From positions 617,715 to 681,714 of the forward strand of contig CP011212.1 of assembly GCA_001029715.1 (NCBI GenBank): DNA of 64,000 nucleotides. Reading direction: 5' to 3'. The notes beneath the pieces are model-generated. The model did not search any database. It had not been told where the DNA came from and saw only the letters and a program-made list of their open reading frames with translations. Made by a program: the position numbers and the translations under genes. Of the stretch, positions 1,450 through 24,523 are shown piece by piece (the stretch's first letter is position 1; each line of letters starts with the position of its first letter). Origin of the DNA: a candidate division TM6 bacterium GW2011_GWF2_28_16. GTDB taxonomy: Bacteria; Patescibacteriota; Microgenomatia; UBA1400; PJMF01.

Positions 1450-1639
1450 ACCTATATAATAATATCTGATTAGCCAGATATTAAAATTATAGAGCCATTT
1501 ATCAATCTTTTTTTCTTCTATATTTTTCTGTAAACAAATATATATTACTAGATATATCCCGGTGAGGAGTCCTACTAAAACCAAGCAATCTAGCTGGTTT
1601 TGGTAGGCGTTTTGAGTCGTCTAATGTTAGAATAGATTC

Positions 1640-2880: not shown

Positions 2881-3534
2881 CTAATTGTTCTTAAAAATGT
2901 ATCCAACGCCTTTGATCGTTTTTATAAAATTTTTACCCAATTTTCGCCTCAAATGAGAAATAGTCATTTCGATGCTATTGCCAAATAAGACTTCCTCTTC
3001 TTGCCAAATTTTTTCTGCCAGGGTGGCTTTGCTTAAAACTTGTTGGCGATGTTTGAGAAATAGTTCTAAAAGTAAAAATTCTTTACGATTAAGCTTAATT
3101 TCTTTGTCATCCATATGAACCTGATGAGCAAAATGGTCTAATTTCAGATTAGCGTTTTTTAGTTTTCGCACTGGTTGCTTGGAATTTTTCTCTAAAAGAT
3201 TGGAGATTTTGGCTTCCAACTCAAGCATGTTAAAAGGCTTAAGTAAATAATCCTCGCCATTTTGTAAACAAGAAACTCTCTTTTTAATATCTAGTTCCGC
3301 CGTCAAAAATAAAATGGGTAAAGTTATTCTGTTTTCCTTCAAATAATCACAAAGCTCATAACTCTTGCCATCTGGAAGAGATAAGTCAGTCAACAAAAGA
3401 TCATAATTTTTAATATCAAGAAAATAGTGTGCTTGCTCTAAATTTTTAGCTAAATCAAAGACGTGAAATTTGCTCAAATGAGTTTTAATTAGGGTGGCTA
3501 AAGAAAGATTGTTTTCTACAAGTAGGATCCGCAC
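2881..3534 (-). CDS. OmpR/PhoB-family two-component response regulator
   Basis: N-terminal receiver domain (MRILLVENN…LLLTDLSLPDG…LTA) plus C-terminal winged-helix trans_reg_C (…KEFLLLELFLKHRQQVLSKATLAEKIW…GYIF). Confidence 0.85.
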   Translation of the reverse strand: MRILLVENNLSLATLIKTHLSKFHVFDLAKNLEQAHYFLDIKNYDLLLTDLSLPDGKSYELCDYLKENRITLPILFLTAELDIKKRVSCLQNGEDYLLKPFNMLELEAKISNLLEKNSKQPVRKLKNANLKLDHFAHQVHMDDKEIKLNRKEFLLLELFLKHRQQVLSKATLAEKIWQEEEVLFGNSIEMTISHLRRKLGKNFIKTIKGVGYIFKNN

Positions 3535-3624
3535 TCGAGTAGTTTAGCAAAAATTGAGCTTCCAATCAAGCCTTTTCTAAGCTATGCACAGCATCTTTCA
3601 TACCAGCTGCTTTTTGCAATGCAA

Positions 3625-3653
3625 TTGCAAAAAGACAGGGTCTGAAATATAAT
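3625..3653 (+). promoter_or_regulatory. Near-consensus sigma70 promoter (TTGCAA-17 nt-TATAAT) upstream of rpsU. The -35 hexamer is embedded in an 11-bp/3-nt/11-bp palindrome (3610-3634).
   Basis: ttgcaa at 3625-3630, 17-nt spacer, tataat at 3648-3653. CTTTTTGCAAT-gca-ATTGCAAAAAG is a perfect inverted repeat. Confidence 0.6.
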
Positions 3654-3698
3654 CAGCTTCTTAATAGTTAATCAAAATGGGAGGGGAGGTGATTCTTT

Positions 3699-3950
3699 CT
3701 GCCAATCGTTATTAGAGCTAAAAAAAACCAGTCGACTTCAGATCTTATTAGACAGTTTAAAAAAGCTGTGGCTGCTACTGGCTTAGTCCAGATAGTGAAA
3801 GATCGTAGATATTTCCAAAAACCTTCCAAGATTAAATCTTTGAAAACTGCTGAAAACAGCCGTTTAAGAAAAAGAGCCCATTCTCTTAGAAAAACTAAAA
3901 ATATTTCCGCCCTTACTATTTCTAAGATCAGAGCAAGACTCGGATCGTAG
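3699..3950 (+). CDS. rpsU: Ribosomal protein S21. The start codon is uncertain: no ATG is available, so a non-ATG start (CTG/ATT region) lies upstream of the GTG the ORF track used.
   Basis: …IRAKKNQSTSDLIRQFKKAVAATGLVQIVKDRRYFQKPSKIKSLK…RKRAHSLRK matches the S21 pattern (…RRFKR…RR.YEKPS..RKR). A GGGAGGGGAGG Shine-Dalgarno at 3678-3688. The in-frame stop upstream is at 3690-3692. Confidence 0.6.
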   Translation: MPIVIRAKKNQSTSDLIRQFKKAVAATGLVQIVKDRRYFQKPSKIKSLKTAENSRLRKRAHSLRKTKNISALTISKIRARLGS

Positions 3951-4013
3951 TTGACTGAGCTCCAGCGAAGGAATGTCCGGAGTGGAGACGGAGAACTAAG
4001 TTGAAATTAAAAT

Positions 4014-4044
4014 TTAAAACCCGCTTGAAAAAGCGGGTTTTTTG
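4014..4044. terminator. Bidirectional Rho-independent terminator between convergent rpsU and the 4151-4648 gene
   Basis: AAAACCCGCTTgaaaaAGCGGGTTTTTT: a GC stem flanked by an A-tract and a T-tract. Confidence 0.7.
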
Positions 4045-4150
4045 ACCGAGCTTTGCGACTGAGTTATACGAAGGAGTGTCTGAAGCGTGGGCGGAAGACG
4101 AGAGGGAATGTCTGGAGTGGAGACGGAGGACGAATCCCTTACGTTAAAAA

Positions 4151-22398: not shown

Positions 22399-23181
22399 AA
22401 AGGCTTAATTAAAGCTCTCAACCAACTCAATCAAGATTTCTACGCACAAATTAGTGAAGATTTTAGTGCCAGCCGCAACTTTTCATGGCAAGGTTGGACA
22501 GAAATTATTAAATATTTACCAAAAAAAGAAAATCTAAAAGTTCTGGATATCGCTTGTGGCAATGGCCGCTTCGTAGAATTCTTAAAGCAAAATCTTCAAA
22601 GTTCTTTTTCCTATTTAGGTTTAGATAATTCCAAAAGCTTATTAAAAATCGCCCAAAATAAATTTAAGGAACAGCAATTTGAATTTTTCGATTTAATCAA
22701 AAATTATTTAACTAAAGAAAAAATTGTTTTTAATACTCAAGAAAAATTTGATTTAATTATTAGTTTTGGACTTAGTCATCATCTGCCTTCCGCCAAAATT
22801 AGAAAAGAATTTTTACAAAGTCTCAAAAGTAAACTAAACAAGAATGGCCTAATCGTCGTTAGCAATTGGCAATTCGCCAAAGAACAAAATCGTTTTCAAA
22901 AAAATACATTAAATTGGCAAAAAATAATTAAAAATCCAAAAATAAATCTTTGGCAAAAAATAAAACTCATTTTCCTTTTATTAAATTTAGAAAAAAATGA
23001 TTTTTTACTGGATTGGCGAAAAGGGGACAAAGCCAATCAAGTCTTTCGCTATTGCCATCACATCAAAGAAAAAGAAATGCTGGGCCTCGTCAAAAAAAGT
23101 GGATTAAAAGTAATCGCCAAATTATCTGCTGATGGTAAATCGCAACATCTCAATCAGTACTTCTTACTTACAGCACTTTGA
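22390..23181 (+). CDS. Class I SAM-dependent methyltransferase
   Basis: VLDIACGNGRF (motif I) and LIISFGLSHHL (motif II). It is divergently transcribed from the Elp3-like gene. Confidence 0.75.
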   Translation: MMQKGLIKALNQLNQDFYAQISEDFSASRNFSWQGWTEIIKYLPKKENLKVLDIACGNGRFVEFLKQNLQSSFSYLGLDNSKSLLKIAQNKFKEQQFEFFDLIKNYLTKEKIVFNTQEKFDLIISFGLSHHLPSAKIRKEFLQSLKSKLNKNGLIVVSNWQFAKEQNRFQKNTLNWQKIIKNPKINLWQKIKLIFLLLNLEKNDFLLDWRKGDKANQVFRYCHHIKEKEMLGLVKKSGLKVIAKLSADGKSQHLNQYFLLTAL

Positions 23182-23319
23182 AAAAAGACCTTGAGAGATT
23201 ATGCACAGCATCTTTCGTACCTGCTACTTTTTGTATGGTACAAAATTCGCTAAAGCATCTTTTGTACCGCAGGGTCCGAAATTCACACAAGGTATCTTTC
23301 GTACCAACTACTTTTTGTT

Positions 23320-23348
23320 TTGCAAAAAGATAGGGTCCGAAATATAAT
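23320..23348 (+). promoter_or_regulatory. Second copy of the near-consensus promoter module (TTGCAA-17 nt-TATAAT) driving tRNA-Gln. The upstream region carries internally duplicated copies of the element seen before rpsU.
   Basis: ttgcaa at 23320-23325 and tataat at 23343-23348. The region 23200-23349 shares TATGCACAGCATCTTTCGTACC…CTTTTTG…AGGGTCCGAAATATAAT with 3583-3653. Confidence 0.6.
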
Positions 23349-23368: not shown

Positions 23369-23439
23369 TGCCTGATCGTCTAATGGCAGGACAGAGGCCT
23401 TTGAAGCCTTCAATCTTGGTTCGAATCCAAGTCGGGCAT
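23369..23439 (+). tRNA. tRNA-Gln (anticodon UUG)
   Basis: Acceptor stem TGCCTGA/TCGGGCA (one G-U pair), anticodon loop CTTTGAA and T-loop GGTTCGAATCC. Confidence 0.8.
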
Positions 23440-23444
23440 CATTT

Positions 23445-23478
23445 TAAAAAATCTCACCAAAGCGTGAGATTTTTTAAA
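23445..23478 (+). terminator. Rho-independent terminator after tRNA-Gln
   Basis: AAAAAATCTCACcaaagcGTGAGATTTTTTAAAA. Confidence 0.75.
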
Positions 23479-23652: not shown

Positions 23653-24523
23653 ATGAACACTCCAATGAAAACTTTAAAAAATGGTTTTTCTATGCCCATG
23701 TTCGGCCTAGGCACTTGGCAAATGGGTGGCAGAGAAACTCGCGATTTTCAAAATAATGATCAAAAAGATATTTCAGCAATTCAGAAAGCAATTGAACTAG
23801 GTATTATGCACATAGACACAGCAGAAAGCTATGCTGACGGTTATGCAGAAACCCTTTTAGGCCAAGCAATCCTTGGATATGATAGGTCAAAACTTTTTTT
23901 AACGACTAAGATACATGCTGAACATCTAAAATATGATGACGTTTTGCGATCGTGTGAAGCCAGTTTAAAAAGAATGAGATACAGATTATTTAGATCTATA
24001 TCTCATTCATTCTCCAAGCATGCAAATCCCTATTCAAGAAACGATGCGTGCTATGGACAAACTAGTTCAAGATGGCTTAGTAAAAAATATTGGTGTTAGC
24101 AATTTTAAAACAGATCGCTTAAAAGATGTTCAAAAACACACAAATAATAAAATTGTTGTCAATCAAGTTTATTACAATCTTTTAATGAGGGAGCCTGAAC
24201 ATGAAGGGCTTTTAACATATTGCCAACAAAACGATATTTTTCTAGAGGCTTATCGACCATTAGAAAAAGGCATGCTTTTAGATAATCAATCAGCACTCAT
24301 TATAGATTTGGCAAAAAAATATAATAAAACCCCATCTCAAATTGCCATCAATTGGTTAATCTCTCAAGAAAACGTGATTACACTTTCCAAAACCTCAACC
24401 ATAGAGCATTTAGAAGAAAACCTCGGAGCAATAGATTGGAAAATGGATCAAGAAGATATTGAAAAACTAAGAAAAGATTTTCCAAATCAAGTGAAAATCC
24501 CTGAAAATCTGCCGTTAAAATAA
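23653..24523 (+). pseudogene. Aldo/keto reductase interrupted by a single frameshift near 23970-23985. It is split into ORFs 23653-24099 and 24020-24523.
   Basis: The N-terminal AKR motifs (LKNGFSMPMFGLGTW, …IDTAESY) are in frame 1. The continuation (…TDYLDLYLIHSPSMQIPIQETMRAMDKLVQDGLVKNIGVSNF…) is in the +1 frame. The switch occurs at the AAAAAGAATGAGATACAG region. Confidence 0.7.

Follow-up and report, generated by a model that had tools for sequence, protein, structure and literature searches.

Promoters of the Escherichia coli rrnB P1 type carry an UP element and several Fis sites as upstream activating sequences. DNA hairpins take part in transcription at the promoters of the phage N4 virion RNA polymerase, where short hairpins (5-7 bp) are read by the phage enzyme, and supercoil-dependent cruciforms have been engineered into E. 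coli promoters. Natural cruciform-controlled promoters are, to our knowledge, poorly documented in cellular bacteria. We likewise know of almost nothing on transcription control in the CPR/Patescibacteria, whose regulatory repertoires are minimal and which do not grow on their own. Promoter regions of E. coli contain more cruciform-capable inverted repeats than expected, being enriched in them (PMC6060812), and a class of symmetry-based bidirectional bacterial promoters has been described (Warman et al. 2021, PMC7612053; PMC10268837; PMC12825309), where it is the -10 element that is symmetrical and 18 bp separate the two start sites (PMC10268837).

Here we describe a palindromic module found before rpsU and tRNA-Gln in the 64,000-nt stretch of CPR DNA that was analysed (the window). 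Like promoters of the rrnB P1 type, it appears to be a strong sigma-70 promoter for tRNA and translation genes, with a conserved sequence that covers the -35 box and extends upstream of it, and with repeated upstream sites. Unlike them, its upstream DNA is one covarying, hairpin-forming palindrome, its repeats duplicate the promoter's own arms in tandem, the window's rRNA and several of its tRNAs lack it, and its cognate factor is putative. With hairpin and cruciform promoters it shares an inverted repeat in promoter DNA whose pairing potential, rather than sequence, is conserved; in contrast to the N4 promoters, its hairpin is about 20 bp long, the promoter is of the cellular sigma-70 type, and extrusion is a predicted potential. 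Resemblance to the bidirectional promoters lies in its pseudo-symmetry, in the genes that leave both sides of it in an AT-rich lineage, and in the complement of TATAAT, which provides a -10-like hexamer on the minus strand (the complement of TATAATN reads NATTAT or TATATT). In the module, however, the axis of symmetry is found some 25 bp further upstream, at about -38 to -40, roughly 60 bp separate the two -10-like boxes, and the arms carry compensatory changes.

Results

The preliminary description had recognized, before rpsU, a TTGCAA-17-TATAAT promoter whose -35 hexamer is covered by a perfect 11/3/11 palindrome, and both are present at 3583-3653, where the sequence matches the earlier quotation exactly. 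The arms CTTTTTGCAAT and ATTGCAAAAAG (3610-3620 and 3624-3634) are 11 nt long, 100% complementary and separated by 3 nt, and folding places them at the mere apex of a longer imperfect hairpin that spans 3596-3647. Perfect hairpins with 11-bp arms and loops of 3-8 nt occur at four sites in the window, one of them the rpsU unit, as compared with 0-2 in Markov-simulated control sequences; at least two of the other three are ordinary terminators (4016-4041 and 23446-23475).

On the + strand, the rpsU unit is preceded by a leader box, ATGCACAGC (3584-3592), which recurs before the first units of arrays in many genomes and is replaced at internal units by TTCGCTAAAGC, TTCGCTTTGC or TTCACACAAGGT. The left outer arm, ATCTTTCATACC (3593-3604), was delimited by folds and pair counts, and the inner hairpin, CTGCTTTTTGCAAT-gca-ATTGCAAAAAG(A)CAG (3607-3638), by folds and stem covariation; the latter includes the 11/3/11 palindrome (3610-3634) and holds the -35 hexamer TTGCAA (3625-3630) within its 3' arm. 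The right outer arm, AGGGTCTGAAAT (3637-3648), fills the spacer and adjoins the -10 hexamer TATAAT (3648-3653). In a consensus scan the two hexamers, 17 nt apart, match at 10 of 12 positions. The outer stem joins TTTCA and ACC of the left arm to TGAAA and GGT, respectively, of the right arm, and a T.C mismatch separates the two paired stretches; AG at 3605-3606 is unpaired and A 3635 is bulged. Transcription is predicted to start at about 3659-3661. The gene served by the unit, rpsU (ribosomal protein S21; 3699-3950, + strand; Pfam Ribosomal_S21, E 2.9e-9), probably begins with CTG (3699), which 6 nt separate from the preceding Shine-Dalgarno sequence GGAGGTGA (3685-3692), and the gene upstream of the unit is divergent. 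A divergent response regulator was rejected as the cognate factor because it is linked to the module only at rpsU loci (the window, L011, L023 and L075).

The related sequence reported before tRNA-Gln is real, and proved to consist of three units in tandem, one truncated, one minimal and one full (23200-23348), rather than of a single copy. The two loci have the 29-mer TTGCAAAAAGAYAGGGTCYGAAATATAAT in common, whose two occurrences in the window compare with an expectation of 0.00. All three units lie on the + strand. A leader box and a variant unit, B1 (23201-23246; repeat families D1 and D2), with left arm ATCTTTCGTACC (23210-23221), then ...TTTTTGTA and right arm TGGTACAAAAT, are followed by B2 (23257-23282), a minimal unit without inner hairpin that reads ATCTTTTGTACC-GC-AGGGTCCGAAAT, and by the full terminal unit B3 (23294-23348), which scores 80.2 bits with the covariance model. 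Its -35 TTGCAA (23320-23325) and -10 TATAAT (23343-23348) again have a 17-nt spacer and 10 of 12 consensus matches, and the tRNA-Gln (UUG) gene served by the array (23369-23440, + strand) starts 20 nt after the -10. The covariance model pairs the left arm of B1 with the right arm of B2 (36.9 bits). A perfect 9-bp inter-unit complement exists in this B1/B2 variant, and pairing between units is possible for variant units; as a general rule, pairing of a right arm with the next unit's left arm was rejected, since the succession of a G-C and then an A-T unit at locus L048 favours pairing within units. An unfiltered covariance-model search of the 64-kb window returned only these two loci (next best 15.6 bits, E 0.21), and the module was not found before the window's other five tRNAs or its 16S rRNA. 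The 14-mer GCATCTTTCRTACC, allowed 3 mismatches, is uninformative on its own, with 12 matches in the window against 8.6 expected.

Further copies are numerous, in CPR genomes as well as in metagenome contigs. Pattern and covariance-model searches recovered approximately 150 units in 14 species-level CPR genomes (Pacebacteria/Microgenomates-like) and many metagenome contigs, with 3 to at least 17 copies per genome or large contig by exact pattern. False positives were recognized by their context; those removed were 13 identical '...ATCTTTTGTACCTGAGGGTCAGAAAT...' matches and a dozen matches without linkers from the relaxed metagenome pattern, and the match L026 from the genome scan. Units stand singly or in tandem arrays of 2-6, and three sizes can be distinguished: full units of ~60 nt, minimal units of 35 nt and micro units of 26 nt. 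Arrays of the window's lineage (14 reference genomes) always end in a full unit, the only one that a -10 follows; this hexamer is almost always TATAAT, and TATAGT or TACAAT at a few arrays. The units of one array are nearly identical, and orthologous loci differ in copy number. Outer arms are spaced by 4, 12 or 36-44 nt and inner arms by 3-10 nt. The asymmetric loop of short-loop units gives TTGCAA or GTGCAA on the + strand only, leaving the minus strand without a -35, whereas long-loop units have TTGCAA on both strands and read TTGCAA-17-TATAAT (+) and TTGCAA-18-GATGCT (-). Unit junctions (GGGTCCGAAATTCGCT) show a sigma-54-like GG-N10-GC spacing, with TATAAT in place of the GC box at terminal units, which is a resemblance only. 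The arrays differ from CRISPR arrays in having linkers of 9-12 nt between tandem units and no spacers, and from integron attC sites in their fixed orientation to genes, their orthologous conservation and the lack of cassettes; a phage origin was rejected because the pattern had no match in viral contigs. Full-text literature searches did not find a description of this motif, and on the comparisons made here the cassette is a previously undescribed, highly conserved element of a group of uncultivated, small-genome bacteria.

Both window loci have the hallmarks of a sigma-70 promoter, a -10 near TATAAT that has A as its second and T as its sixth base (3648-3653 and 23343-23348) and, within the usual 16-18 bp upstream, a -35 near TTGACA (TTGCAA, 17-nt spacer). 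The genes behind the module comprise 12 tRNA species, ribosomal proteins S21, S15, L31, L11, S12, S10 and S17, EF-Tu, GlyRS, trigger factor, PNPase and GroEL, which bears out the proposal of a shared conserved promoter module lying mostly before translation-apparatus genes (tRNAs, ribosomal proteins, EF-Tu and GlyRS). All terminal units face a gene start, about 6-80 nt away. For the 12 tRNA species, 5' ends lie 17-43 nt past GAAAT and 12-38 nt past TATAAT, and in leaderless cases (e.g., L044, L046, L041, L050 and L080) the ATG follows TATAAT by 6-13 nt with no Shine-Dalgarno sequence. The covariance model scores approximately 80 bits on the forward strand versus 28 on the reverse. Because a tRNA 5' end or gene start comes 6-40 nt behind the -10, often without a leader, the module is, judged by its sequence, a promoter, and gene starts directly behind the -10 agree with the start position after TATAAT that the preliminary description expected. 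The alignments show the predicted core promoter to be the unit's right half, in which the inner hairpin supplies the -35 through its 3' arm and the right outer arm forms the 17-nt spacer before TATAAT; transcription would start about 6-8 nt past TATAAT, outside the hairpin.

Different species have the module before the same genes (tRNA-Gln, -Thr, -Arg, -Val and -Leu, S21, S15, L31 and GlyRS), which indicates vertical inheritance. This bears on the idea of a mobile, promoter-carrying palindromic repeat that spread through genomes in the manner of REP/BIME sequences, Neisseria Correia elements, MITEs or 'mobile promoters'. Those elements are also multi-copy, imperfect intergenic palindromes, some of them known to carry promoters, and the module is palindromic, amplifiable in tandem and present in the copy numbers given above. 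The module differs from them in that its orientation and distance to genes are constrained at every terminal unit, its sites are orthologously conserved, and signs of transposition are absent: no intragenic copy, target duplication or linked transposase was seen, and viral contigs gave no match. We consider such an origin very improbable.

A second, AT-rich lineage has kept the outer arms, has a wholly different inner stem and a poor -35, and has lost TTGCAA. Many of its units are followed by poor -10 hexamers (TAAAAA, TAAGGT, TAATTG), and for this reason the predicted promoter function is less secure there. Only in this lineage do divergent genes, at least seven of them, have an ATG 7-9 nt to the left of the unit, six at exactly 7 nt; the left edge of the cassette may here serve divergent leaderless genes as well, so that it would work in both directions.

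The whole unit folds as one imperfect hairpin of about 20 bp (-21.8 kcal/mol with RNA and -17.1 kcal/mol with DNA parameters; z -3.2 and -4.7) and shows strong covariation. In counts from copies that are related by descent, perhaps also by gene conversion, and thus are not independent events, the outer R/Y pair is G-C 39 times, A-T 22 times, and G-T and A-C once each; a second pair count, on an alignment that was fitted to the covariance model, gave 54 G-C, 31 A-U and 2 G-U. When N was allowed on both sides, true members still had only G-C or A-T at this position, and both states of paired positions are found in one genome. Variants of the inner stem match their own partners (CTGC/GACAG, CTCC/GGAG, CTAC/GATAG, CTCA/TGAG, CTCT/AGAG and CTGAATT/AATTCAG), and native arm pairs have a mean energy of -11.1 kcal/mol versus -4.9 +/- 0.26 with shuffled partners. 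Across the 87 units of this fitted alignment, 97% of cells are paired, double changes occur in 10 of 19 pairs, and the covariation score is 0.262 versus 0.085 +/- 0.006 after shuffling, a value reached by none of 500 shuffles; slid controls gave at most 0.07. The T.C mismatch and the AG and A bulges recur across the units seen, some of these columns, like many invariant columns of the outer arms, being partly fixed by the search patterns. Upstream units without a promoter, minimal and micro, are palindromic too. These comparisons show that the intrastrand complementarity of the whole 45-56-nt unit has been kept by compensatory change, while inner-stem sequence, loop and length drift. At the gathering threshold, Rfam searches of the window and 13 loci gave no match to the module, only tRNA, 16S or chance matches, and at E up to 10 the region 3540-3700 gave only chance-level matches.

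The preliminary description had suggested a dedicated transcription-factor site. A classical operator, at which a dimeric activator or repressor of a translation regulon binds the double-stranded palindrome over the -35, would account for the strongly conserved outer arms, the regulon-like gene set and the overlap of the site with -35 and spacer, and it has a precedent in acetogens, where a clade-specific promoter motif has a dedicated TetR-family activator (PMC6873888). As in CIRCE/HrcA-type operators and in such motifs, a conserved inverted repeat marks a regulon; theirs, however, have fixed half-site spacing and no covariation within sites, whereas the half-sites of the module are 3-10 nt (inner) or 4-44 nt (outer) apart, a variation of tens of nucleotides. 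Paired positions covary in single sites, with both states in one genome, and the second lineage has replaced the inner-arm sequence altogether. Variable arm spacing and within-site covariation therefore argue for intrastrand pairing rather than for a fixed double-stranded recognition sequence, and make a classical operator distinctly unlikely. The part of the suggestion that stands is the possibility of a dedicated factor, which would have to read the structure or the separate arms; a conventional dimeric operator does not fit the spacing and covariation.

It is also possible that the palindromy has no function of its own, and reflects back-to-back promoters with a common centre, templated correction from arm to arm (quasipalindrome template switching or gene conversion) and growth of arrays by slippage. 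The reading of TTGCAA on both strands of long-loop units, the divergent genes of the AT-rich lineage and the lack of strand bias in folding energy are consistent with this, and near-identical units within arrays and variable copy number at orthologous loci are typical of slippage or conversion. Correction should erase imperfections, however, yet the T.C mismatch and the AG and A bulges recur. Moreover, the palindrome has outlasted full turnover of the inner stem between lineages, although unselected palindromes tend toward deletion, short-loop units keep the stem though their minus strand has no -35, and upstream minimal and micro units remain palindromic without a promoter. We regard this explanation as unlikely, and return to selected pairing.

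Covariation is usually a sign of RNA, and the prior favours RNA, but where the hairpin is placed does not: it stands 5' of the -10, upstream of the predicted start site. This placement, and ATGs of several genes only 6-9 nt behind TATAAT, speak against the earlier alternative of a structured 5' element in the downstream transcript. At about half of the loci, the upstream gene ends 4-60 nt before the array with no terminator, and there the hairpin is probably transcribed as the 3' tail of that gene. A promoter whose pairing takes effect in the RNA of a transcribed unit, as a protector of read-through 3' ends, a weak terminator or insulator, a processing site or the 5' hairpin of a divergent mRNA, would agree with these co-directional arrangements, which leave no room for a terminator (at tRNA-Gln in the window, 23181 to 23200), with a covariation strength typical of RNA, and with U.G-type wobbles at several pairs. 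At rpsU, a promoter-like minus-strand sequence, TTGATT-18-TATATT (3675..3646), would place a transcript start within the right arm.

The hairpins are, however, equally intact where a divergent upstream gene excludes read-through (-17.8 kcal/mol, n=24, and -17.9 kcal/mol, n=24, behind co-directional genes). A divergent start paired with the -10, about 18 bp from the + start (PMC10268837), would fall inside the right arm and exclude the outer stem from the transcript, although the outer R/Y pair covaries. Folding energy shows no strand asymmetry (-18.7 versus -18.5) and G.U counts are similar, a result that is uninformative as to the RNA strand. Termination was rejected: a T-run is absent on both strands, the terminator scan, which flags 4016-4041, leaves the A/T-rich stem with its following ATAAT unflagged, and ordinary terminators lie nearby at 4016-4041 and 23446-23475. 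With a divergent gene upstream of rpsU, the palindrome is also not the terminator of an upstream transcript, as the preliminary description had considered. A role in RNA is, in our estimation, rather doubtful. Since the hairpin lies upstream of the -10 and is equally intact without read-through, the structure most likely acts in DNA.

Discussion

We tentatively favour, with confidence a little short of even, a clade-specific palindromic sigma-70 promoter with selected intrastrand pairing, most likely at the DNA level. The cassette would drive highly expressed genes of a CPR clade, among them many tRNAs, ribosomal proteins, EF-Tu, GlyRS, chaperones and some others; its hairpin would not be part of the downstream transcript, and the selected structure would act in DNA. 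This could occur in two ways. A cruciform or hairpin extruded by negative supercoiling may make the -35 and the leading bases of the -10 inaccessible, creating a supercoil-sensitive switch on translation genes. Alternatively, the folded arms may be the target of a clade-specific protein, with the invariant outer arms, the mismatch and the bulges as recognition features. More speculative, and fairly unlikely in our view, is the stronger proposal of a cellular promoter class that depends on a conserved DNA hairpin or cruciform, extruded by supercoiling or held by protein, which gates access to the -35 and to the -10 at its upstream edge.

Covariation in promoter DNA is unusual and implies a selected nucleic-acid structure upstream of the start site. 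A natural, conserved example makes cruciform regulation of natural bacterial promoters directly testable. The cassette is also a precise, searchable marker for the promoter set of one clade, with dozens of sites in each genome; it defines a candidate regulon centred on translation and predicts start sites and many leaderless mRNAs. In practical terms, it may improve the annotation of gene starts and operons, and could supply a compact, strong promoter for work with CPR bacteria.

CPR bacteria are not known to have much of the usual machinery of growth-rate control. If a hairpin-gated promoter proves to be real, it would be a structural, supercoil-coupled throttle on the synthesis of tRNAs and ribosomal proteins in these organisms, with the upstream tandem units tuning the response.

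Results

Direct comparison with the window confirmed the sequence first read at 3583-3653: a repeat finder returned two 11-nt arms (3610-3620 and 3624-3634) that are 100% complementary and 3 nt apart, and a consensus scan gave 10 of 12 matches for TTGCAA (3625), a 17-nt spacer and TATAAT (ending at 3653). The related locus that the preliminary description placed before tRNA-Gln is real as well, with TTGCAA (23320), a 17-nt spacer and TATAAT (23348) located 20 nt upstream of the tRNA (23369-23440). A 29-mer common to both loci occurs twice in the window against an expectation of 0.00, and perfect 11-bp hairpins are scarce, with four sites in the window and 0-2 in simulated sequences; at least two of the other sites are terminators (4016-4041 and 23446-23475). 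The first copy lies between a divergent, minus-strand gene for an OmpR-type response regulator (2881-3534) and the gene for ribosomal protein S21 (rpsU; Pfam E 2.9e-9). An unfiltered covariance-model search found no third copy in the window, and the module is absent at its other five tRNAs and 16S rRNA, where promoters are ordinary or unrecognisable.

The surroundings of both copies have features of their own. The S21 frame lacks an ATG, GTG or TTG start and opens with CTG at 3699-3701, the probable initiation codon, which follows a Shine-Dalgarno sequence (GGAGGTGA) by 6 nt (3685-3701); this arrangement recurs at module loci L011, L023 and L075, and CTG initiation might be a means of controlling rpsU translation. 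A second conserved repeat, GGAATGTCCGRAGTGGAGACGGAGGAC, occurs on the plus strand at 3970-3996 and 4105-4131, on either side of the rpsU terminator (chance expectation 0), and there may be a degenerate third copy at about 4060-4100; in related genomes it is found just 5′ of module arrays (L005, 2495-2521, minus strand; L008, 5710-5736; L012, 5067-5093). Beyond tRNA-Gln, overlapping plus-strand ORFs at 23653-24099 and 24020-24523 resemble N-terminal and C-terminal portions of a single aldo/keto-reductase-like protein, and may reflect a frameshift or pseudogene, or else an error in sequencing.

A longer structure extends beyond the palindrome, which forms just its tip. Positions 3596-3647 form one imperfect hairpin whether folded as RNA (-21.8 kcal/mol, z -3.15) or DNA (-17.1 kcal/mol, z -4.65), composed, from the outside in, of a TTTCA/TGAAA stem, a T.C mismatch, ACC/GGT, an unpaired AG, CTG/CAG, a bulged A and the 11-bp apical stem. 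The apical stem supplies the -35 hexamer through its 3′ arm, and the right outer arm occupies the spacer and shares its final T with the start of TATAAT. The tRNA-Gln locus (23200-23348) is a tandem array and not a single unit, in which a leader box, TATGCACAGC, is followed by a variant unit (B1), a minimal unit with no inner hairpin (B2; ATCTTTTGTACC-GC-AGGGTCCGAAAT) and a full unit (B3), after which comes ATAAT. The right arm of B1, GGTACAAAA (23237-23245), is also perfectly complementary, over 9 bp, to the left arm of B2, TTTTGTACC (23260-23268), which offers an alternative pairing between units; the same nested variant precedes tRNA-Val at L013 and L055.

Scanning one genome per species for an exact pattern (ATCTTTYRTACC-N2-32-AGGGTCYGAAAT) yielded 56 loci, including one false positive (L026). 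The true loci reside in 14 CPR assemblies, each with about 12 loci at most, whose labels read Pacebacteria (CPR phylum Minisyncoccota per NCBI), Microgenomatus or Parcubacteria or are wrong. A covariance model trained on 63 units retrieved additional, more divergent units within known loci and clearly separated the strands (about 80 bits forward versus about 28 reverse). When variable positions were opened to N, a metagenome scan gave 75 loci, about 25 of them unrelated chance matches; among the remainder, large contigs (533-841 kb) carried 3 to at least 17 units each. Viral contigs contained zero pattern matches, no Rfam family matches the module, and a full-text literature search found no description of the motif.

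The module is a promoter. In the window's lineage, a -10 stands only behind the last unit of every array (nearly always ATAAT, in a few cases ATAGT or ACAAT), linkers such as TTCGCTAAAGC, TTCGCTTTGC or TTCACACAAGGT come after internal units, and the terminal unit is always full, the sole type supplying a -35. The 5′ ends of 12 tRNA species lie 17-43 nt past GAAAT; protein genes behind the module encode S21, S15, L31, L11, S12, S10 and S17, EF-Tu, GlyRS, trigger factor, PNPase, GroEL and MurA, as well as several membrane or unknown proteins. Many of these genes have an ATG 6-13 nt after TATAAT with no Shine-Dalgarno sequence, the layout of leaderless or near-leaderless mRNA, and transcription would thus start just past the -10. 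Since the module accompanies the same genes across species, it is inherited with the gene and not recently inserted; orthologous loci differ in copy number and unit type and the units of one array are nearly identical, which points to local amplification.

A few units depart from this pattern. Full units at L020 (about 1513-1614, minus strand) and L040 (5384-5442, minus strand) are followed by an A-run (GAAATAAAAAAAAAGACG...) in place of TATAAT, with no tRNA or ORF start beyond it, and may be decayed promoters or units used differently. At L048 and L049 (both minus strand), the roughly 150 nt past the terminal -10 yielded no ORF, tRNA or Rfam family, and these modules may express unannotated small RNAs. 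The tRNA behind the module at L004 (7341-7414) was called by ARAGORN as tRNA-Ile with the rare anticodon TAT.

Covariation indicates conservation of the hairpin at the level of structure. The purine of TTTCRTACC pairs with the pyrimidine of GGTCYGAAA in 61 of 63 units (G-C in 39, A-T in 22), and both states coexist in single genomes and at orthologous promoters, such as those of tRNA-Gln, tRNA-Leu and tRNA-Lys; the metagenome scan, which allowed any base at both positions, still gave G-C or A-T only among true members. Inner stems vary in matched fashion (CTGC/GACAG, CTCC/GGAG, CTAC/GATAG, CTCA/TGAG, CTCT/AGAG, CTAT/ATAG), including a switch from TTTTTGC/GCAAAAA to TTTTTAC/GTAAAAA, and a second, AT-rich lineage (contigs Ga0209976_10000001 and _10000002) keeps the outer arms around an inner stem that is CTGAATTTT...AAAATTCAG or a variant of it and lacks TTGCAA. 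Folding of native arm pairs gave -11.1 kcal/mol, versus -4.9 ± 0.26 for shuffled partners. Among 87 model-aligned units, which are mutually related, were fitted to the structure and have several outer-arm columns fixed by the search patterns, 97% of cells are paired, both partners have changed in 10 of 19 pairs, compensatory cells number 167 versus 48.6 ± 5.1 in shuffles, and the covariation score is 0.262 versus 0.085 ± 0.006, a value reached by 0 of 500 shuffles that collapses with slid partners. At the level of sequence comparison, these data show that the hairpin has been preserved through compensatory change.

Discussion

Our analysis establishes the promoter architecture, the arrays and the set of genes served. 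The preliminary description was right to propose a promoter module shared mostly by translation genes; its fixed operator or structured 5′ leader gives way to a conserved hairpin. A 5′-UTR element of the downstream gene is excluded by the position of the hairpin 5′ of the -10, and a terminator by the absence of a T-run and of any call in the terminator scan, with true terminators close by. A classical dimeric operator does not fit either: the inner arms lie 3-10 nt apart and their sequence is dispensable, and the gap between outer arms runs from 4 nt in micro units to 12 in minimal and 36-44 in full units. A mobile repeat of the REP or MITE kind is countered by fixed gene orientation and distance and by orthologous sites.

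The hairpin might also act in RNA, through read-through. This is possible in about half of the loci, where the 3′ end of a co-directional gene lies 4-60 nt upstream, but single units whose upstream neighbour is divergent pair equally well (-17.8 versus -17.9 kcal/mol; 19.2 paired bp behind divergent genes versus 19.5), and the two strands fold equally.

Long-loop units have TTGCAA on both strands, with GATGCT, complementary to the conserved AGCATC, 18 nt past the minus-strand copy. At least seven divergent genes of the AT-rich lineage, among them exonuclease III-like, rubrerythrin-like and epimerase-like examples, have their ATG 7-9 nt from the unit's left edge (six at exactly 7 nt), the minus strand reading ...GGTACGAAAGATACTGTGT and then ATG. 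Because some of these units have no gene at all on the right, the cassette evidently serves the left-hand gene there, and so can act leftward, rightward or both ways. The left -10-like box is weak in the window's lineage, and the response regulator has a separate plausible leaderless promoter between the module and its GTG start at 3534 (TTGATT-17-TAAACT-6-GTG, 3534-3568, minus strand; 8 of 12 in the consensus scan, just under threshold); we therefore make no claim of bidirectional use at 3583-3653. Overlapping the rpsU -10 is another minus-strand promoter-like site, TTGATT-18-TATATT (3675..3646). In known symmetric bidirectional promoters, 18 bp separate the two starts (PMC10268837). A divergent start coupled to the -10 in this way would land inside the right arm, leaving the outer-stem covariation unexplained. 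A further rival holds that the palindromy has no function and is kept by templated correction between two back-to-back promoters.

We infer that the selected pairing acts in DNA, and the most economical model would be a supercoil-sensitive cruciform or a protein that reads the structure. The folded state would bury the -35, and AT/TA pairs extending the outer stem would also hide the two leading bases of the -10; recognition features may be the invariant outer arms together with the T.C mismatch and the bulges. We know of no natural, conserved cruciform-type promoter repeat with covariation. In Escherichia coli, promoter regions are enriched in inverted repeats with cruciform potential (PMC6060812). 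The element described here is a new, clade-wide variant of the bacterial promoter, and its hairpin's mode of action is experimentally tractable.
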